NCBI GenBank assembly: GCA_951406725.2
Contig: OX597820.1
Location: forward strand, 55,428,001-55,492,000
Length of the DNA stretch: 64,000 nucleotides
Source: Octopus vulgaris
Taxonomy: Eukaryota
Direction: 5' to 3'
The notes under the pieces were generated by a model. The model worked only from the letters and a program-made list of their open reading frames with translations, ran no database searches and was not told where the DNA came from. This document shows, one piece after another, positions 37,114 through 63,097 of this stretch. The position numbers and the translations under genes are program-made. The number at the start of each line of letters is the position of its first letter. Within the stretch, counting starts at the first letter, position 1.

Positions 37114-38263
37114 CTATTTAAAAGCCAGATAAGTGTAACGCCGCCAATGGGGGCATCGAAAAGCCGACTGTAAAAGCCCGTTTACCATCCGGCCTCTGGC
37201 AAACAAAATATGGAAGAGTTCGGAGACACAAAGGTTGCACTGCCTTCTGCCCCTATCAAATGGGAGGGCCACCGACAAAATTGACCATTCCAGCCTGTAG
37301 CTTAAGTTCATATCCTTCAGTCGCCATATTAGCTTACTGAGTCCCGTGGTCTGGCGCTTGTTCATGTCCCGAAAAGTTGCGTAATGGTTGGAGACACGCA
37401 AAGACAATCTTGAGGATGAGGCCCCTACATAAGTGAAGACATCTGAGTCCGTGTAAACCTTGCATTGGTAGACGGCGTTTTTGATCTTGGAGTTCGCCGA
37501 CGTGAATCTAATTCTGCTAGGATTAGTTTCTGAAATTAGAACTGCGTTCCTGTCACTATATTCGTTCCGAGACCTGCAGCCGCTTACTACTCTATTTTCC
37601 ACTACGTCACTATTAACTATAGGAATAACCCCTGATTCTCCACTATCTATCAAAGTGCTGTCATTGCTACTGCCCGTGGTGCTGCTATTGCGGGAAATGA
37701 TGCTGGGGATGCTATTGGGGCTCTCTACCCTACTCCCATTGTTACCGTCAACCACAACACCCCTATTTATAACTATACCCCTAGTGGGTACTCCCTGGCT
37801 GGAGCTGAGATTATGTGTCACTGTACTGGCTCTCATATCATTATTACTACTATAATTATTCCTACTGAGCATTAAACCGGGAGCGGAAGAGGCTGTGCCT
37901 CCGGAAAAAGGTGATAGGGTCTTAGTAAGTAGCCTATTATTATGGGAGGCGATTATCTGGGCGAGGTTTTTAGTGTTGGAGAAAGCTATCCTAACTTTAT
38001 GCGAGTTAACCGTGGAGTAATATTTGGAATTTCTGGGGAAGTTATTGGCGATGGCTTGTCTAAACATGAGGGGGAGGTTAGTTCTAATCTGCTTACCAAA
38101 GGGGATTACAAACCATATATGCTTATTCCTATCAGTGTGATGGATCGGGACGCCAGCTCTCGCATTCGGGTGGGTGATTCTCGGATGAATAACGGGTCTT
38201 GGGTTAGTGTAAGACCTCCCGGACCGATAATTATCCTTGTTCGCTAAATTAAATGCGGGAGCG
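37114..38263 (-). CDS. PLE protein C-terminal half: post-RT linker and GIY-YIG endonuclease (5'-truncated, no native start)
   Basis: IWFVIPFGKQIRTNL...FPRNSKYY...VRIAFSNTKNLAQIIASHNNRLL, then NAVYQCKV...TYVGAS...RVSNH...TGLSKLIWRLK...WSIL...CNLCVSE...CPH. The frame is uninterrupted. Confidence 0.85.
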
Positions 38264-38383
38264 ACAGTTTCGCCATGGGCTCTTAGGAGCATAGTTCGAT
38301 TTGTTTTTGCTCCGCCTCTGTTCTGTTTTTGTTTTTCCAACGGATTTCCTATTTTCTTCCTGAAGAGAAAGACACAATATGGT

Positions 38384-38422
<39 letters not shown>

Positions 38423-43150: not shown

Positions 43151-45111
43151 AACGTATTTGCATCCTTTAGAAATTACATTAGAGATTACCATTCCTTGTA
43201 CATAAGATGTTGCAGACTGATAAATCAGGTGCCTTTCACATTAATTTCTGATAATTCTTTTCCATTCGTAGTTAATCATTCTATGTATCTTATTCAAAAC
43301 ATCTACAGTATATATATAGTTTTATCTATAAATGTAAATAATTTAAACTTATAAAAAATTACGTGCTTCTTTTATTCAATAAATGCAGCATAATTATCAA
43401 GATTTTATATTTAGAATTTCAGTTTATATTTTTCAAATTTTAAAAATATTTTATTTTTGTAGCCCATTAATTGTAGCTACTGGAGAAGTTCTCTTAGAGG
43501 TAGAAATTAATTGGTGCTACCCTGTGTGATGGTTGACAATGAAATTAGTAACATACTAATGCAAATTCCAAGTGTCAATTATTATGGATGGGTTTTAAAT
43601 GAAAGTTCCATAGAAATCAAAGAACACAATTAGGTGGTCTGAGAGAATCAACATCCTCTATTCTATCTCACAAAGGAAAAAAGCTGTCATGATCGGTTAT
43701 GTTAGGTAACATTATATGTACTTATAGGTAGGAAATACAATAATTTCTTGTTCACTTCTGTTTAGGAAATATTGTTGAACAAATAAACAAAGAATATAGT
43801 AGTTTAAAAATGCATATATTGAAGTATATATTTTAGTTTTTCTTTGGAAAACCAGATATCCATAACGAGTCCTTATATTTTTGTAAAGAAAGCTAAGGTC
43901 ACAAATAATACATATTGGATTGATATTCTTTTTTGCTGTCAAATTAATGAACCTGTAAAATACACAACTTAAACAGCATTTGAATACTTAGGTATTCTGA
44001 AAGGACACCTTTTGATCACTATAGCTCAGGTCAGCCCTGAACGAGCAGGCTATGCTCAGAGACGTTCAAACTATGGTCACCCTCATTTTCTTTCAGAGTC
44101 TAGGTTCACATCATCAAATGCATTTTTTGTTGGTGTTAAAGGCTGTATCTGTTGATTTGATAAACAGAAGAATTGGCTGATATTCCCCTGACTGTACAAC
44201 ACTTCTCAGGTCAGTGTCAGAAATTCAAGAATCCTAAATACAAAGCCTTGACGTGATCGTTCAACCTGCTTGAAATAGAAGCCAACTTTCCTTCAAATCA
44301 AATTCTATTGTCTTAAAAATAAAAACAACACATTAGCTGGTGTAGTCAGGAGGGCACTATACATTGAAAAGATGCAGGATAATCATAACCAGAACACCTT
44401 TGATAAGGTTGTGCAGGTGTCACTAAAGCCAAAAAGGATTAGCATAACAGACACATAAATAAGATACTGCTTTCACATAGCAACATCTTTTGAATATAGT
44501 TAGTTAATAGATTTAATGCAGAGAACCAAACCAAAATAATAATAATCCTTTCTACAAAAGCACAAGGCCTGAAGTTTGTGGGGAGGGGAGTAGTCGATTA
44601 CACCGACCCCAGTCTTTCACTGGTACTTAATTTATCGACCCTGAAAGGATGAAAGGCAAAGTCGACCTCGGCAGAATTTGAACTCAGTATGTTGAGATAA
44701 TATAATAGTCTTTTCTACTCTAGGCATAAAGTCTGAAATTTTGGGGGAAGAGTTAAGTCAATTACATCGACCCCAGTACTCAATTTATCGACCCCGAAAG
44801 GAATAATAATAATTATTATTATAATTATAATACAACAGTAGGTTCCAACAACAAAAGGCAATAGTTAGTATAAATGCATTAAAAAAAATTTCGTTTGTCC
44901 TGTTAAAACAAAATTTTTTTTAACTCGCAACTCATTTTTACGAGTTTTCTCAATAAACAATGAGAAAAAGAAACTGAAAAAATACTCTGACTTATTTAAA
45001 TATATTTATTTGAAAGATAAATGTTTCAAAGGCAAAAAGTGATGGGTAAAATAATAATAATGATGGTGATGATGTTAAGATGATTTATTACATAAGACGA
45101 ATTTTTTTATG

Positions 45112-45158
<47 letters not shown>

Positions 45159-46357
45159 GTGTGTATGTTTGGGTCTTGCCGAAAGAGCAAGGTAATATAA
45201 TAAATAAATAATTTACTATAAAGCCTTGATTTTGTAAGGACTGGGTCGGGTATAGTCGATTGAACCAACTTCAGTACTAGACCGATTCTTATTTTATCGA
45301 CCCCGAACAACGAAGAAACGAAAGACAGAACTGACGAGACTAAAATACTTAAAGCATGTCATTCCATCAACCTGATATCTTTTTTCTTGGATTACCCTGA
45401 AGAAAAAGGATCTCAGCGAAGCGGAAACGCGAGTCTGAGGCGTTCTGACTTTTCTTTGAAGACATTAGCAAAATAATGATGCTCAAAGTATCAAAATTAT
45501 GTAATAAATAATGATGAAAAGTAAACAGTTGAAACTCCAGGCTTCAATTGTTTAGCAAAAAAAAAAAAAAAAATTATAAAGATAAATTAAAAAATGATTA
45601 AAAAAAAACAAAATAGGTGAGATGAGATGAAAGCATAATTATGAAACAGATCCATATATCACAAAAGTCCTCCTATAAAGAAATTAATTAATGTAATTAA
45701 AACAGAGGAGTTTAAACGAGCTAAGTGTCTATTAGCTGTGTCAGATTAATTTCATAATAAAAACTTAAGAGAAGTTATTTTCATACTCAGGAATATTTTT
45801 TCAACTTACAGAAAGCTTCCTATATTCTTTCGTATGTTTATATATTTGTATATAGCTTTTTTTTTTTCAACGTGATATCGTAAAAGTAATGATAAATATC
45901 ACCATTATGCTATTGACATAACATTTTGCATAACATTTCAATGGGATCGCAGACACAATAATAGCAAGTTTTGCTATTATACAGTAGCAAGTGACTCAAA
46001 TGTAGAACTACAGTTCGATGTTACATCAAGGTGAGCACTTTCTCCAGATCAATAAATGAAGAGAGAGTTTACATCACAGTAAAAATTTTAGTCTGTAATT
46101 GAACTTTTTTTTTCCTGTCACTTGTTTTGTTTTCTTTTTTTTTTCCGCAATTTATTCTTTGCTGTCTGTTTTGAATTCTTAGAAGAGCTGGTTCCTTCAT
46201 TATCAGCATCAGTAAAAATTGTCCAAACGCGTAGTTCTCCAACGGACAGCGAATTCACGTGTCGAGTGGACAAACGGGAACAAAGAAGGAGAAATACTCA
46301 CTCCAGGGTATATGAGTAAATAAGTAAGTGGTCAACAACTCCTTTAGAATGCCAGGT

Positions 46358-47098
46358 TCATGCTTTACACTCGTGGAAGTTTATCATGGGTCCCTGAGTT
46401 AAATCAGAGAAAGACGACCTGAAAGAATAAGACTGAGATGACTGATACAACATTTTCAGATTCTGACGATCTTCTTCGGTTAACGTTTCCAGCAAATCGT
46501 GCAAAGCATTTCGTCGGGTACGACACCTGGAGAAATTATTATGGTCCGGAGATAACAGCTCTGGTGTAGGGTCGTCGGGAAAATTTATAGTTAACATTTC
46601 AGCAGATGGTGATAAGTTGGAAGAATCGAAGTTGGGAGAAGAAATTAACTGGCAGCTGGAAGTCGATGAAGTTGCCGCTGTACAGATGTTTGTTAAACAA
46701 CTTGGTCGATTAGCATCTCGGCAAAGGGGTAAGCTGCTTCCACCAAGTCTTTCCTCCCGACTAATTTGCAGGGATAGTACTTTCGTAGTTTCTTTACAGC
46801 CTGTTGTACCACGATTTGGCAAGTTTTCTGAACTTTGCGACAGTTCTTGATCCGTATTTTCGGTACATTGTCTCAGATCTTCAGTTCCAAACTCGTCCAA
46901 GTCGTCATCCGACATGCTATCCACTTCACCATCACTATTCAAATTAGATTCATTTCTGTGTAATAAAAAATCTCTGACGAATTTTTGGCGATTTTCTATA
47001 CTTTCAAAGATATCAGCCATACCATTTCGTCGCATTCTACGAGGGTAAGATTTTAATGAAACCGACTCCCTTTTTTCTTGCTGTTCACCACCAGTCAT
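46358..47098 (-). CDS. Putative intronless host gene: 246-aa acidic/Ser-rich protein with two PKI-like PKA pseudosubstrate motifs
   Basis: The only long non-repeat, non-TE ORF in the window. First ATG in an ACAATGA context. Motifs RRMRRNGMADI (core 47012-47032) and RCRTRRNALHDL (core 46496-46516) resemble PKI-alpha GRTGRRNAIHD. Promoter motifs lie immediately upstream. Confidence 0.7.
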   Translation of the reverse strand: MTGGEQQEKRESVSLKSYPRRMRRNGMADIFESIENRQKFVRDFLLHRNESNLNSDGEVDSMSDDDLDEFGTEDLRQCTENTDQELSQSSENLPNRGTTGCKETTKVLSLQISREERLGGSSLPLCRDANRPSCLTNICTAATSSTSSCQLISSPNFDSSNLSPSAEMLTINFPDDPTPELLSPDHNNFSRCRTRRNALHDLLETLTEEDRQNLKMLYQSSQSYSFRSSFSDLTQGPMINFHECKA

Positions 47099-47254
47099 TG
47101 TGTAATATGTATTAAAATATAAAATCAGTTCGGTTGAAAAGTATCTTCGGTTCAATCCTGTTGATGTTTGAGTGAAATAATTGAACAAGCTTCTGTTAGT
47201 TTGTTTGTATGAGAGAGATTTCTTAGCGTCAATACAGAACGAAGGCTTTTGTAG

Positions 47255-47385
47255 CACTAGACAGCTCACCTCAAGTAATTGCTTAATAACTAGTCAGTAA
47301 GAATACCAATCGATTAAAAGCTTCGACTACCGGTTATCAGCCAATCAAAACGCTCGTGTGCACCAGAAAACGTGACGTCAGCATA
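47255..47385 (-). promoter_or_regulatory. Candidate promoter: CRE, two CCAAT boxes and TATA-like element
   Basis: TGACGTCA at 47373-47380; AGCCAATCA at 47339-47347 and ACCAATC at 47305-47311; minus-strand TATTAA at 47283-47288; locally CpG-rich. Confidence 0.65.
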
Positions 47386-48123
47386 GAAGCGGGTTTTCCT
47401 CCCCACTTCACCTCCCGTATTAACGGACTTCTTCTTTTTTCCCCAGTAGTTTCATTTTATTCATGAGAAAAGAAAAAGAAATCACATTTTGACTGCGACC
47501 TCACCCATGTCTTAGTGATTCTGTTTAGAAATTCACGCCTGAATGAACAATTCTAAATAAAGTCTGCCGAGATGCAAACCAACCAGAATACTAAGAAAGT
47601 GGTGGTACTGGTGGAAGGGAAAACCGAGAATAAACGTGACGAGCAATTAATGACACATGTTTGACAAGCTCGTCATTAATTGCTCACCAATACCGCTGGC
47701 TAACTAGATAGTTTTCTCATTAGCTCGGTCTGGTTACGACGTTGGAATCAAGGTCAGGAAATCGCTGCTTGTTAGTGGTTTTAGGATGGATATTAGAACC
47801 AAACATATATGCAAATGTTTATACTGGCGAACCACATATACGGAAATGTTTACACACGCAACACGTGAATATTTATTTATATACACATAAGAACACACAC
47901 ACATGCTCGTGATGTATTATAGATATGTTTTCATATAAACACAAACAATTCACTTTCTGTTGCAGACATGCATACATTCCGATATCTTTGTTAATTTTAC
48001 GCATGTCATCTTAAAATAAAACCCAAAAGTGATATAGATGCACACGTACATATATTTATGCATAAATTAAAATGCGTATAGATGCATACACGATAATTGT
48101 ACACACATATACACACACACACC

Positions 48124-48176
<53 letters not shown>

Positions 48177-48222
48177 ACAATTTGAACGGTAAGTTAATGA
48201 ATAAATAATGTGGTATATCTGA

Positions 48223-48328
48223 ATAAGGCTGGCACACTACAGCAAGGTGTAGCCCTGGATATTTCCCCCGTTTAGCAGCAGAAAATACCGCTACGCCAAC
48301 GCTAGCTGCATGATAATGATTTGTTTAT
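48223..48328. repeat. ~100-bp direct repeat, partner at ~49488-49586
   Basis: TAAGGCTGGCA.ACTACAGCAAGG...AGAAAATACCGCTACGCCAAC...TGCATGATAA.GATTTGTTTA occurs at both sites. Confidence 0.88.
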
Positions 48329-48961
48329 TGTCGATTTCATTGATCTCGTTAATTGGTATGGCCATGGAAGGATTTGAACTCAGAAAGTAAACGGACATAA
48401 CTTGATACAAGACTTTGTTAATTCTGCAAATCACCACCCTTAGCAGATGCACAACAATAATTTGTTGGTGTCAGGAATATTACTCGTACAAGTTTTGAGT
48501 AGAGGACCTGCAGTACGCATTAGTAATGCAAAGTACCCAATGTGATGCGTTATCGTCTGCGGGGTCATACCCGTTCTAGGTGTTTGCATAATATTGACTT
48601 CTTACATAGAAACAGTTTTATATTTATAAGTGGCGAATACGCATATTAGTGGCGGTAATTCTATGCCTTTTTCAAAAGGATGAACAACATAAATGAAATT
48701 ATCTACAAAGATTCGAAACCGAGACATGGCACCAGTTCACCACGAGCATATTTCCGCTGCATAAAAGTAAATCTAATGATTTTTAGTATTGGCACAAGAT
48801 CACGTATTACGGGAGTGCCGCTTTTACCGGCACAGAATGAAAAGGGGGTGGGGGTCTTATTTTATTGATCTCAGGAGGACGAAAGGCAGGGTTGGCTGAT
48901 CGTAATATGAACTCAGATCCTAAAAGCATTTTGCCCTGCATCCGAATATCTGTATGTATAG

Positions 48962-49315
48962 GCGCAGGAGTGGCTGTGTGGTAAGTAGCTTGTTTACCAA
49001 CTACACGGTTCTGGGTTCAGTCCCACTGCGTGGCATCTACTATAGCCTCGGGCCGACCAAGGCCTTGTGAGTGGATTTGGTAGACGGAAACTGAAAGAAG
49101 CCCGTCGTGTGTGTATATATATATATATATATATGTGCGTGTGTTTGTCCCACTAGCATTGCTTGACAACCGATGCTGGTGTGTTTATGTCCCCGGCAAA
49201 AGAGACCGATAGAATAAGTACTAGGCTTACAAAAGAATAAGTCCCGGGGTCGAGTTGCTCGATTAAAGGCGGTGCTCCAGCATGGCCGCAGTCAAATGGC
49301 TGAAACAAGTAAAAG
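48962..49315 (+). mobile_element. Octopus-type tRNA-derived SINE (CpG-retaining)
   Basis: Same family as 9699-10113, with small deletions. Further copies at ~50380-50750 and ~50966-51355. Confidence 0.85.
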
Positions 49316-49726
49316 TATATATATATGATCAGGCGAACGAAAATTTTACTAATTTTTTTACTAATGAGTTATTTAAAGCATTCTTTCGTGGACCTACGTG
49401 GTCAGCCGGCATATAAAACAGATTTAAGAGGTAACACGGTAACTGCCAGGACTATATTATCCCTTAGTACTCCTTTATATATATATGTAAGGCTGGCAAA
49501 CTACAGCAAGGTTGTAGCCCTGGATATTTCCTCCGTTTAGCAGCAGAAAATACCGCTACGCCAACTGCATGATAACGATTTGTTTATATGCACACACACA
49601 AGGATTTGAATGTCTTAAGTATATTTCAACTGGTAAATTTGCATTTATACACATCGCTGCTTAGCGTTGTCACCCAGTGTGTACACACGATACGCACATT
49701 TCAAAAGTTATGAAACACAATTTAAT

Positions 49727-50202
49727 CCCAGAAAAAGGGAAACCTATAATATTTTTTTTTTTAATTTTATTTTTCTTCTTAACGAGGGTGGAGTCATCGA
49801 CTTGGCCTGAGCATGGACTCAAACTCAAATGAAATGAGGACGAAAGTTCAAATCCCACCCCTGCTGAGGGGGTGAAACGTAGTAACAAAGCCTGCAACGT
49901 TCGAAATAAATTTTTTTTTTTTCACACAATAATATAATATAGAATCCCCCCCAAACGGGAAACCTATAATATTTTTTTCCTCACAACGAGGACAACAGTT
50001 CAAATCTCGCCAACGCTAGTGGCGGATGCCACAATAGAGCCTACAACGGCTAAAATTTAATTTTCTTTTTTTCCGCAATAGTAAATTGTTTATCCCCCAA
50101 AACGGGAAACCTATAATATTTTTTCCCCCTCTTAATAAGGATAACAGTTCAAATCCCACCCTCGCTGGGGGGGGGGCGACGACAATAAAGCCTACAACGG
50201 CT
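49727..50202. repeat. Diverged tandem array, three ~150-220 bp units
   Basis: Each unit contains GGGAAACCTATAATATTTTTT...AGTTCAAATCYC...AGCCTRCAACG; units start at ~49727, ~49946 and ~50094. Confidence 0.8.
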
Positions 50203-59799: not shown

Positions 59800-61480
59800 G
59801 GTCGTGGTTTTTTCGGCTCCTGAAATTCGGTAAAAAAGAACAAAAAGCGTTGTTGTTGTTGTGGAAATTCTGAACGGCGTTGACGCGGTTTCGCGTTTCG
59901 CTCGTTCAGCGCGTTACACTTTTTCTGTTTTGGCGGCCGTTTTTCGGTCGGAGGCGACTATGAGCCGCCTCCATCAAGCGGAGGAGATGGAAGGGAGAAT
60001 TTACTCTGAAATTTCGACGGAAGTATCGACATCTGAGGAGGAGTTGGCGGTGAAAAAGATGGAAGGCACCTACGCAGGTGTAACGAAGAAGTCAACGGAA
60101 AGAGAGATAGACCTGGCTAAGTTGGCGGGCCTCCAGGAGTTTGTGAAGGAGGACGAGAACGGTGAAGTCGAGCTGCTGCATCCAGTAGGGCGCGGAGACT
60201 GGTTCCATCGTAGAACCATTAAATATAAAGTATTTATGAATGGAGGTAGAAAGATGGAAGTAATCAACATGGAAGCAATTGAAGAGGCTCTCAAGCAGAC
60301 AGGAGAGGAAATTGTGTACATGACAAAAGGATTACAATACGGAACGATAACGGTGCAATTTAAAAGCGAAAAAGCAGCCAGGAATGTAGCAGCCAAGGTG
60401 GTGAGTACAGAAAAGATTTACTTGTTACCCTCGTATCTGAATAGGCGGACAACCAGAATTAGGGTGGAGGGAATACCTCCACACCTAGAGGGCGAATTAA
60501 TAACGGCTGCGGTTATAAAAGGAAATGAAGATAAAGTGGACATCCTCCACGCCATTATGAAGTATGAAGGCGTGAGAGGTGCCACACTAGTTATGAACAT
60601 TCAAGCGGAGGCGGATGTTATAGAGAGGATTACGGACAGCATAAAAACTGGAAATATTATTATGAGAGTGTGGGTGGAGGGTAGGGCGCCCAGGTGCTAC
60701 AAGTGTGGCCAAAGGGGTCACATAAGAGCCTACTGCCCTCCCCCACCAAAGGAAAAAGAAAAGGAAAGCGTTGAGGAAGCCTCAGGAGAGGAAGAAAATA
60801 AACAGAAACAAACAGAGAAGGAAACGACAGAAGAAGAGGAGATGCAACAAGAGTGGAAAGAAGGGGGAACAAAGAGAAAAAGAAGGAAAAAGAAAAACTG
60901 TGCGAAGCCCCAACCCACCCCGACACCACCCATACCCTTGGAGTCCCATCCTTCCCCTGCAGACAGTGAACCCACCCGCTCCCCTCCAACAAGAAAACAA
61001 AAGAAAAATAATAATACAGACAGACAAGAGTTTGAAAACGAACCCAGGCCGAACATTTATATTGTGACGGAACAGAAAGAGGTTGAAAGGGTAATGGAGG
61101 AGTATGAATGGTATGAAATGGATGGGACCAGATATGCAGTGCTGGAAAAGAAGAATATAGATGAGTTTGTGTTGAGGTGTGAAAGGGAGAATTGGGAGGT
61201 GAAAGATACAAGAATGAGCGATGAATTCGTGGAATATATGGAGGACAGTTTCGGAGTAAGAATGGATATGGATGGTCTTCGTATTGGGAATGAACATTCA
61301 GGTGACAGTGAAATCAAAAGGACAGGTAAGTGATGCTGGCGGAGGGGGCCGTTAGCATCGCTTTCATATTATCATTTTTCATTTTCATTTGCTCATAAAT
61401 TTAATCATATTGTTCTATGTCCCCCATGTTTTGTTATGTCCGCCATTCTTCGTAGCCCCTGGTGGGTAATAAAGAAATAA
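59800..61480 (+). mobile_element. ORF1-only (HAL1-like) non-autonomous LINE unit
   Basis: CpG-rich 5' UTR, ORF1 and a T-rich UTR ending GCCCCTGGTGGGTAATAAAGAAATAA, resembling the LINE 3' end at 19483-19504. Confidence 0.6.
59960..61333 (+). CDS. LINE ORF1 (gag-like, CCHC zinc knuckle), unit A
   Basis: Intact 457-codon ORF from the first ATG; YGTITVQF, RIRVEGIPP and EGRAPRCYKCGQRGHIRAYC; basic/acidic tail. Confidence 0.88.
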   Translation: MSRLHQAEEMEGRIYSEISTEVSTSEEELAVKKMEGTYAGVTKKSTEREIDLAKLAGLQEFVKEDENGEVELLHPVGRGDWFHRRTIKYKVFMNGGRKMEVINMEAIEEALKQTGEEIVYMTKGLQYGTITVQFKSEKAARNVAAKVVSTEKIYLLPSYLNRRTTRIRVEGIPPHLEGELITAAVIKGNEDKVDILHAIMKYEGVRGATLVMNIQAEADVIERITDSIKTGNIIMRVWVEGRAPRCYKCGQRGHIRAYCPPPPKEKEKESVEEASGEEENKQKQTEKETTEEEEMQQEWKEGGTKRKRRKKKNCAKPQPTPTPPIPLESHPSPADSEPTRSPPTRKQKKNNNTDRQEFENEPRPNIYIVTEQKEVERVMEEYEWYEMDGTRYAVLEKKNIDEFVLRCERENWEVKDTRMSDEFVEYMEDSFGVRMDMDGLRIGNEHSGDSEIKRTGK

Positions 61481-61709
61481 CATGGAGGAAATCAATTTAT
61501 TGCGTTATTAGTAAGTTGATATATATTTTTGCTCTCATACTACTTATCTCTGTTATTATATACTGTTGGTCTACCTTTTTTTGTCCATTGTTGTCTAACG
61601 GACGAAGTCAACCTTCGCGCGAAGACTTCGCGTTGGTGTTCCCCCCTCAGTGGGGGAAAACTACAATCAATTTAGATTACCAAAGGCTTGTTAAAGCCAT
61701 TTGTTCAAA

Positions 61710-63097
61710 ATGGAGTCCCCCATCACTTATTCGCCCGTGACGAGCGAGGAGGAATACCCGGCGTTGTCGCCAAGTAAAAAAGAGGCGTTGTCGCCAAGAA
61801 AAAAAGAGGCGCTGTCGCCGAAGAAAAAAGAGGCGGCGTCGCCCAAGAAAATGGTAAAACCAGTACCAGCATCAACTCCAGCAAAAAAATTCGCTGAAGT
61901 GGCTGGGAAGAAAATTAAAAAAATTAACGTGGACAACCTGGGAAAACATGCAGACTGTGTGTCAAAAGAGGGCACGGAAGTAACCGTGGCTTCAAACGCC
62001 AAAATACAGGAGGATATTTCGAATAGGAGAATAATCTATAAGACATTCAGTATAACAAACAGAGCAATCCAAAAAATAGAGGAAAAAAAGATTGAAAACT
62101 GCTTAAAGCCAATAATGGACAAAATTACGTATATCAATCGAGGGAAGAAATACGGCACAGTGGAGGTGAGATTCACGTCAGAGGAGGTAGCAAAGAAGCT
62201 ATCCATGGAACCCATAAAAGCAGAGGATTTTGTTCTCCTACCCCTGTATAAAGGCAAGAGAACTTCCAAAATCACTATGAACAACATCCCGCCAGAAGCG
62301 GATGCCGAAGTCCTAGTGGCAGCAGTTATGGTAGGCCTGGAGGAAAAAATAAACATCCTCCAGGCCACCGTAGAAGAAGAAGAATTCTGGAAAGGGCAAA
62401 AGATAATAATAGCCATACAAGCAGAAGTACAAACCCTGGAAGAGATCCCAGAGACTCTTAGGATAAGCGAAGATGAAAGAGTCACAGTCTTCGTAGAGGG
62501 CAGAAAGCCGAGGTGCTTCGGCTGCGGTAAGAAGGGGCATGTAAGGGCGGAATGCCAGCCCCAACCCAAACCGCAGGAAGCACCTAAGCCAAAAGGAAAA
62601 GAAGACAATGTGTCACCAGAAGCAGCGTCAGACGGCCCAGAAGGGAAGACTGAAGGTGTGGAGGTGATGGTAACAGCAGAACCAGCGGCGGAAAAAAAAA
62701 AGAGCGAGGAAAAGATAAATGAGGAGGGGTGGGCAAAAATTATCGGAAAAAAAAAAGAAAAACGGAAACCACCCCTCCCAGAGTAATTTTAAAAAAGAAA
62801 AAAGAGTCAATAAACTCATATATGGCCGTAAAAGCATCAAATAGCAGACTCGGAAACGTGTTGGCAGCCATGGCCAATGTGAAGAGAGTAGAGAAAAAAA
62901 TGACTTTGCAATTTACAAAATAGACCGGAAGGATTACGGGCGGATAAAGTCAGATTTCTTCCATGACGTAGGCCCACTTAGGTTGGATGTAACATCTCCA
63001 CATATATTCGAGGGCCTACGTCAGACTCCCCCACGAGGCCCAGAAAAAGAGAAGGAAGAAGAAGAAAAACCGAACCACTGATATAAAAGGTAAGTAA
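61710..63097 (+). CDS. LINE ORF1, unit B (paralog of unit A; C-terminus frameshifted in A-runs)
   Basis: YGTVEVRF, KITMNNIPP and EGRKPRCFGCGKKGHVRAEC. Open to 62786; coding-like sequence continues in other frames across A homopolymers at ~62750, ~62895 and ~63066. Confidence 0.8.

Follow-up and report, generated by a model that had tools for sequence, protein, structure and literature searches.

A candidate tandem PKI-like inhibitor of protein kinase A beside a cyclic AMP response element in Octopus vulgaris

Introduction

Does the octopus genome encode an inhibitor of protein kinase A (PKA) that is induced by the very pathway it restrains? The question is raised by a 64,000-nt stretch of Octopus vulgaris DNA (contig OX597820.1, positions 55,428,001–55,492,000, forward strand), hereafter the window, in which positions are counted from the first letter. 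A preliminary description of this locus, made from the letters alone, had proposed an intronless gene for a PKI-like protein with two pseudosubstrate motifs, placed under a cyclic AMP (cAMP) response element (CRE). Judging from sequence comparison, the open reading frame (ORF) is a real gene with relatives in octopods and cuttlefish, and its product is likely to inhibit the PKA catalytic subunit (PKA-C). The prediction that the CRE drives induction of the gene we hold to be evenly balanced. Taken as a whole, a tandem PKI-like pseudosubstrate inhibitor of PKA-C, with CRE-driven induction as a delayed brake, is the reading that we moderately favour.

An intronless ORF with two pseudosubstrate-like modules

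The ORF occupies positions 46358..47098 of the minus strand, starts with ATG and encodes a product of 246 aa; the stop-to-stop frame begins at 47293 and contains no earlier in-frame ATG. It is a single-exon frame for a disordered protein with two pseudosubstrate-like modules, and the protein aligns end to end with A0A0L8HSK0 and five others. The proposed lack of introns fits one contig of run X1 that spans the ORF without a joint, and the portrayal of the chain as mostly low-complexity, acidic and Ser-rich agrees with the composition of the linker (residues 50–185: 17% Ser, 10% Thr, 19% Asp plus Glu, net charge −17). The two similar modules near the ends were both present, with the quoted motifs at residues 18–35 and 189–207 and P-sites at Gly26 (RRNG-M) and Ala198 (RRNA-L).

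Module 1 (residues 14–50; 46949..47059, minus strand) carries Arg at P-6 and P-5, the RRNG-M core (47018–47032), a D-I-F-E stretch and a predicted helix over residues 26–50. Module 2 (residues 186–221; 46436..46543, minus strand) has Phe at P-9, Ser at P-8, Arg at P-5, the RRNA-L core (46502–46516) and HDLLETLT, with a helix-turn-helix (residues 198–204/208–221) predicted by AlphaFold2. The caveat originally attached to motif 2, that its Phe falls at P-9 and its Arg at P-5 and P-7, was correct; motif 1, however, does have Arg at P-6. The intervening acidic, Ser/Thr-rich linker (46544..46948, minus strand) is predicted to be disordered and includes a short conserved RPSCL motif (46694–46708). 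The C-terminal end is formed by FHECKA (46361..46378, minus strand), a motif invariant in the group-1 proteins described below, which possibly has a docking or localisation role.

Two AlphaFold2 runs on the monomer gave a mean predicted local distance difference test score (pLDDT) of 41 and 50 and a predicted template modelling score of 0.17 in both, indicating no fold. The only helices predicted, 26–50 and 198–204 plus 208–221, each begin at a P-site, and residues 201–220 of module 2 reached a pLDDT of 74–83. Foldseek found no match to the predicted monomer; in the ESM Atlas the best value for the window protein was 0.78, with nothing usable, and its relative P0039 returned none. A scan of 44000–50000 against Rfam gave 0 matches. 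A DUF3678 match (E 0.009) was dismissed as falling in the low-complexity linker, and a death-effector-domain identity of the module-2 helices was dropped, the single match being weak (P0003, E 0.09, 28 of 82 positions).

At least two RRx[AG]-hydrophobic motifs occurred in 0.0155% of 200,000 shuffles of the window protein. The preliminary description had allowed that the ORF might map to a multi-copy repeat; the module was found in 1 of 2,176 six-frame segments, so no such repeat exists within the 64-kb window. Among the refuting outcomes listed in that description, none of those open to a check turned up.

Relatives form two paralogue groups

A first search recovered six proteins among 312 candidates, with A0A0L8HSK0 of O. 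bimaculoides at the top (85% identity to the window protein by BLASTP, 89% in the alignment). Four others, P0003–P0006, are ~37% identical to the window protein and have in common an MTGE start, the internal RPSCL and the FHECKA motif; they are likely orthologues whose source is probably a squid or cuttlefish. The family tree, with 2 of 11 branches supported, is too weak to fix orthology. Searching the 50% clusters with the single window protein yielded just 3 proteins, and a profile search returned at least 12 (8,000 scored), uncovering a second group of paralogues in which both modules recur. Its members include Sepia pharaonis CAE1234015.1 and Argonauta hians GAB1602774.1, and the group is also present in O. 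bimaculoides (A0A0L8HRC2) and in O. vulgaris (CAI9717243.1). A module-only profile gave at least 17 proteins (7,999 scored); this search was seeded with the motif, and the presence of the motif in its matches is therefore partly circular. It added short-linker ENA proteins that carry two modules each (P0037, 114 aa; P0040, 124 aa). A further ENA protein, P0039 (189 aa), bears three RR[NH][AG]L-A-[ND]-I-F modules. All relatives named by their sources are called "uncharacterized", "hypothetical" or "unnamed".

RPSCL is invariant in all seven group-1 proteins. Both it and the terminal FHECKA are absent from paralogue 2, which has another conserved tail and a pattern resembling a nuclear export signal (NES), so the localisation of the two paralogues may differ. 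Forms extended past FHECKA with Trp, together with short ORFs from the same downstream sequence, were also seen (P0005, P0006, P0009–P0021); they appear to be gene-calling artefacts that arose by reading through the stop codon, and the natural form is P0008 (230 aa, 109 contigs).

Selective conservation of both RRN[AG] motifs, which had been suggested as a test of the proposal, was observed in both cephalopod paralogue groups, while the linker decays. In alignment A6 (15 rows, 14 of them with module 1), RRNAL of module 2 is invariant in 15/15 rows and module 1 retains RRN in 14/14; the P-site of module 1 is Ala in 12 of these 14 and Gly in the window protein and P0040, and neither Ser nor Thr stands at an aligned P-site in any of the 15. 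Against P0003, P0004 and P0008, the window protein is 74% identical in module 2, 36–46% in module 1 and 20–22% in the linker; against six paralogue-2 rows the values are 59–67%, 29–32% (five rows with module 1) and 9–11%, respectively. Linker length ranges from about 45 to 170 residues across the family.

Resemblance of the modules to PKI

Among 177,635 PDB sequences, the module profile matched PKI-alpha best (1cmk_I, E 0.019, 12 aligned residues), and the match extended to Asn at P-1 and His-Asp-aliphatic at P+2 to P+4. A PDB search with the single window protein gave 0 matches, and a match of profile A2 to LytB (E 0.61) was set aside as chance. Both window modules contain the core of a PKA pseudosubstrate, namely Arg at P-3 and P-2, a non-phosphorylatable P-site and a hydrophobic P+1 residue (RRNG-M, RRNA-L), as these features are set out in the available text of 10.1101/2021.07.05.451193.

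In the numbering of PKI(5-24), the upstream determinants are Phe at P-11, Ser at P-8 and Arg at P-6 (PMC5059767, available part). We counted them in 31 modules of 15 proteins, leaving out near-duplicates, read-through forms and the partial P0026. An aromatic P-11 occurs in 12/31 modules (background 6.6%), Ser at P-8 in 16/31 and Arg at P-6 in 11/31; the rows are related, so these counts are not independent. Aromatic P-11 and Arg P-6 coincide in three modules, namely module 1 of P0003, P0004 and P0008, each of which has Phe P-11, Ser P-8 and Arg P-6 all together. The Pfam PKI model (PF02827) gave a match, below threshold, in 11 of the 15 relatives scanned, the best being P0003 (20.7 bits, E 5.4e-4, profile positions 6–27). 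The designation "PKI-like" gains support from the conservation of the modules, the PKI-alpha match, the sub-threshold Pfam scores and the full determinants in three relatives.

Upstream elements

A perfect CRE, initially placed some 280 bp above the ATG, lies 275 bp from it: the full palindrome TGACGTCA (47373..47380) is the sole copy in the window. Two CCAAT boxes follow, both on the plus strand and hence inverted relative to the gene (GCCAATCA, 47341..47345, and, 35 bp from it, ACCAATCG, 47306..47310), and then a TATA-like TATTAA (47283..47288, minus strand), a weak, non-consensus box. These elements, all named at the outset, stand in canonical order within 100 bp. From the spacing, transcription is predicted to start near 47258, ~30 nt below TATTAA, and this would give an ATG-free leader of 160 nt; 8 ATGs lie between 47384 and 47720. 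The CRE sits 115 bp above the predicted (unmapped) start, and in CREB-target immediate-early genes a full CRE is found about 50–150 bp above a TATA-linked start. Finding one CRE somewhere in 64 kb carries no significance, as 35 of 100 shuffles had it too. Within a set 400-bp stretch, a CRE arose in 0.285% of 20,000 dinucleotide-model sequences, and together with two CCAAT boxes in 0.09%, a post-hoc test. Any feedback loop would rest on this one promoter.

A second cluster lies at 47635–47691, with half-CREs near 47641 and 47675 and a CCAAT near 47691, and plus-strand AATAAA signals stand beside it at 47556 and 47629; the region 47556–47691 might serve as a promoter further upstream or mark where a divergent transcript ends. 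The observed/expected CpG ratio is 0.7–1.5 across 45000–48700 versus 0.43 window-wide, a figure depressed by microsatellites, and is consistent with an unmethylated locus. A metagenome scan for promoter DNA of the relatives matched 596 stretches, none of which was confirmed, and a bacterial-type promoter scan is uninformative for this locus.

Transcription and a probable 3' untranslated region

The stretch was present in 20 of 24 listed runs from 9 studies, 14 of them guessed to be RNA and none on record as such. Contigs of four runs were aligned to the locus: X1, X7 and X12 (probable RNA) and X18 (presumed DNA). One X1 contig covers 45588–47681 without a joint, one X12 contig covers 45670–47256, and X7 contigs cover 45858–46995 and 47042–47704; no indels within the ORF were listed. 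X1, X7 and X12 are small assemblies (31–94 Mb) with 2–4 near-identical records each, and X18 has 237 mostly repeat-like records, a pattern that fits RNA for the first three without proving it. Contig ends (X12 at 47256, 2 nt from the predicted start; X1 at 47681/47877; X7 at 47704) were not counted as evidence, and X18 has little cover near the predicted start.

Downstream of the ORF lies a probable 3' untranslated region of at least 1.19 kb (45170..46357, minus strand), mostly covered by X1, X7 and X12 contigs, with the next sense AATAAA signals below it at 45089 and 45010. It holds 7 ATTTA pentamers against about 2.9 at the window rate, which is not adjusted for local AT richness. Within it, position 45483 reads T>C (A>G in the sense of the gene) in X1 and X7 contigs and not in X18, making it a candidate for A-to-I editing or an allele; the same change occurs at 47432 in X1 only.

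A weak resemblance to the TC1 family

P0039 scored 25.7 bits (E 1.2e-5, cut-off 27) on the Pfam TC1 model (PF15063), a value summed over its repeats, none of which passes alone; it has no PKI match. Window module 1 reached 13.2 bits (E 0.09, positions 19–38), P0001 E 0.15 and P0002 E 0.054, and the whole window protein had no TC1 match in Pfam. Only about 20–30 of the 75 positions of the domain were matched. The relevant TC1 stretch presumably lines up in register with the module, reading basic-basic-x-Ala-hydrophobic and then N-I-F. A link between module and TC1, in which P0039 might bridge the PKI-like modules and the TC1 family, is a lead drawn from these profile scores, and we do not treat it as a result.

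The TC1 proteins TCIM (C8orf4) and AVPI1 resemble the octopus protein in the weak module match to TC1 positions 19–38; the remaining positions are unlike it. The available text of PMC5349172 describes TC-1 as single-exon and disordered, like the window gene and its product, with orthologues reported there only in jawed vertebrates. Tcim and Avpi1 appear in tables of cAMP-induced genes in the accessible portions of PMC9346484 and PMC12073449, respectively. A kinase-inhibitor role of TCIM or AVPI1 was not found in the literature searched.

Proposed mechanism

Each module would enter the active-site cleft of PKA-C as a non-phosphorylatable decoy, inhibiting as PKI does. The P-3/P-2 Arg pair would meet the acidic cleft, Ala or Gly would occupy the P-site and Leu or Met the P+1 pocket. 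The 140-residue acidic linker could allow one chain to hold two catalytic subunits, or raise avidity, and the helices after each P-site may provide a second contact or a docking site without counterpart in PKI. PKA and CREB acting through the upstream CRE would then induce their own inhibitor, closing a negative loop. There is precedent for the chemistry: RRx[A/G] is a conserved metazoan pseudosubstrate of the type I regulatory subunit (PKA-RI), as far as the available text of PMC12608923 goes, and in the part of PMC5059767 at hand an ARHGAP36 RRGAV peptide is enough to inhibit PKA-C, and such a motif from outside the PKI family can act with PKI-like potency. An animal-type PKA-C was identified as P0048 (E 2e-209 to PKA-C alpha); a scan of viral contigs for PKA-C found nothing.

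Several findings weigh against this reading. Neither window module has the joint high-affinity pair, module 1 having Leu at P-11 with Arg at P-6 and module 2 Asn at P-11 with Cys at P-6, and the accessible part of PMC13186710 ties loss of the P-6 salt bridge in Smoothened (SMO) to about 1,000-fold weaker binding. Since neither module combines the aromatic P-11 with Arg P-6, affinity in this species is probably below that of PKI-alpha. More modules have Arg or Lys at P-5 (24/31) than have Arg at P-6 (11/31), a preference in keeping with other basophilic kinases. BLASTP of window module 1 against module 2 gave no alignment. On the Pfam PKI model the window protein scored 14.2 bits (E 0.058, residues 193–208) with a cut-off of 25 bits, and P0036, P0039, P0040 and the fragment P0038 (4 of the 15 scanned) gave no match. 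The best-conserved stretch is C-terminal to the P-site, where PKI lacks such a helix pair. Crude pattern scans for an NES matched none of seven patterns in the window protein and gave one stray linker match in five group-1 relatives; the same kind of scan found a class 1a/1b-like match after module 2 in 6/6 paralogue-2 proteins. At the locus itself, contigs of two of the three probable RNA runs, X1 and X7, extend past the CRE to 47681 and 47704. The CRE can therefore be part of the transcribed region, an argument against a single start downstream of it; transcription at a low level, from upstream or in the divergent direction, could account for these contigs.

A helix before the P-site appeared in one AlphaFold2 model (188–204, low confidence) and not in the second; such helices form on binding. 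With 246 aa and two modules, the protein also departs in size from PKI, which has fewer than 100 residues and one N-terminal inhibitory region. The window protein fails four tested features (the P-11 and P-6 pair, Pfam score, size and NES), and for this reason we do not class it among the PKIs; as to the upstream residues, it is on sequence a degenerate member.

Alternative explanations

The inhibitor might exist without the loop. The same PKA-inhibiting protein could come from a constitutive gene or another start site, the CRE being incidental or serving a divergent upstream transcript; this alternative, which overlaps the mechanism we favour, strikes us as possible though on the unlikely side. 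It would account for the X1 and X7 contigs that bridge the CRE, the 35 in 100 shuffles with one CRE per 64 kb, the non-consensus TATA and the second half-CRE/CCAAT cluster with its plus-strand AATAAA signals. It leaves unexplained the tight CRE-CCAAT-CCAAT-TATA order beside a gene for a PKA-decoy-like protein (the 0.09% of the post-hoc dinucleotide model), and longer leaders would contain 7–8 upstream ATGs. Far less room remains for the ORF being a frame open by chance, or a piece of a repeat, that encodes no functional protein. The missing annotation, the lack of a Pfam match above threshold, low Atlas recognition and the repeat-rich window would suit such an origin, but it is contradicted by the search results: relatives align end to end at 36–89% identity with conservation focused on the motifs, the frame is single-copy in the window, and it is intact in the aligned contigs. 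We regard this explanation as very nearly eliminated.

Two further alternatives keep the protein and change its partner. The consensus R-x-R-x-x-S/T-hydrophobic of Akt, SGK, RSK, S6K, PKG or PRKX is also fitted by the pattern R-x-R-R-N-A-L, and the modules could chiefly be decoys for one of these kinases, as the excess of basic residues at P-5 over Arg at P-6 and the P-5 Arg of both window modules would suggest. However, module 2 of six paralogue-2 rows lacks the P-5 Arg and retains RRNAL, five of these six rows have His-Asp/Asn-Leu after an aromatic residue at P-12 to P-10, the P-2 Arg is retained throughout, and the best structural-database match is PKI; we consider another kinase improbable. 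A little less probable still is that the module docks a non-kinase partner through a TC1-type helical motif, with RRNA as the basic lead-in of the helix and the protein as an inducible adaptor. TCIM binds Chibby, and the P0039 score, the weak TC1 matches of window module 1, P0001 and P0002, and the conservation peak C-terminal to the P-site all point that way, as do the single-exon, disordered TC-1 and the cAMP-induced Tcim and Avpi1 in the partly available sources cited above. On the other side, about 20–30 of 75 profile positions were matched and the P0039 score is a sum in which no repeat passes alone; P0037 and P0040 lack helices after module 2 and still retain RRNAL, and PKI-type upstream residues recur among the modules. 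A decoy for PKA-C remains our preferred identity for the modules.

Other open frames in the window

A 423-aa open frame at 37114–38385 (minus strand) had no Pfam match at E 0.01; we take its end to resemble the GIY-YIG endonuclease of Penelope-like elements. Two adjacent gag-like frames, 59834–61333 and 61695–62786 (both plus strand), each contain a CCHC zinc knuckle, in the former by PF00098 (E 0.0015) and in the latter by eye, and are likely retroelement ORF1 copies.

Comparison with known systems and significance

With the PKI family (PKIA, PKIB, PKIG) the octopus family has in common the RRNA-hydrophobic-His-Asp core, a disordered chain and, in some members, the aromatic P-11, Ser P-8 and Arg P-6. 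It differs in having two or three modules in 114–251 aa, where the available text of PMC4674680 gives PKI one in fewer than 100 aa, in the conserved helices after the P-site, in the missing NES pattern of the window's group and in its Pfam scores below the cut-off. PKIs of fewer than 100 residues occur in many invertebrates (PMC4674680 and a coral table in PMC10838073, each available in part), including C. elegans K09E9.4 and coral pdam_00011290; the existence of a PKI-like protein in an invertebrate therefore has precedent.

Tandem pseudosubstrates likewise have precedent. The accessible text of PMC4674680 describes in Inka1 two inhibitory boxes within otherwise unconserved sequence, acting on PAK4; Inka1 and Inka2 (FAM212) are alike in this layout, and FAM212 was a weak Atlas look-alike of the window protein (0.76, a lead only). 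Their kinase and motif, with Pro at the P-site, are different, and no sequence homology was found. ARHGAP36, the PKI-like motifs of Smoothened and the PKA-RI site offer, in the partly available sources above, RRx[A/G]-hydrophobic decoys of PKA-C outside the PKI family. These are single motifs within large folded proteins, whereas the octopus protein consists of little besides motifs and linker, and Asn P-1 and His-Asp are common to it and PKI. What emerges from these comparisons is, at the level of sequence, a tandem PKI-like family of cephalopods and further relatives. The literature searched, outside which most subscription papers fall, describes neither this family nor a PKA inhibitor with several modules, and nowhere treats TCIM and AVPI1 as pseudosubstrates.

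As a long shot, an invertebrate family of cAMP-induced multivalent PKA sinks, with two to three PKI modules per chain, would be the missing transcriptional brake on PKA in molluscan neurons, and its module would be ancestral to both PKI and the first TC1 helix. In that case the cAMP-induced human proteins TCIM and AVPI1 would regulate PKA or a sister kinase as pseudosubstrates that have so far gone unrecognised. The TC1 resemblance suggests for these two human proteins, both little understood, a function that can be put to the test.

According to the available part of 10.1101/2025.10.16.682951, the use of creb and egr1 to mark activity in octopus is only now beginning. The favoured reading of the locus as a CRE-driven tandem inhibitor is cheaply testable with two 25-residue peptides. 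PKA–CREB signalling is the core long-term memory pathway in molluscs; if the reading is true, a PKA inhibitor under CRE control would act on that pathway as an inbuilt timer and offer a ready-made marker of activity, and one chain with two or three PKI modules could bind two catalytic subunits or act as a stoichiometric sink.
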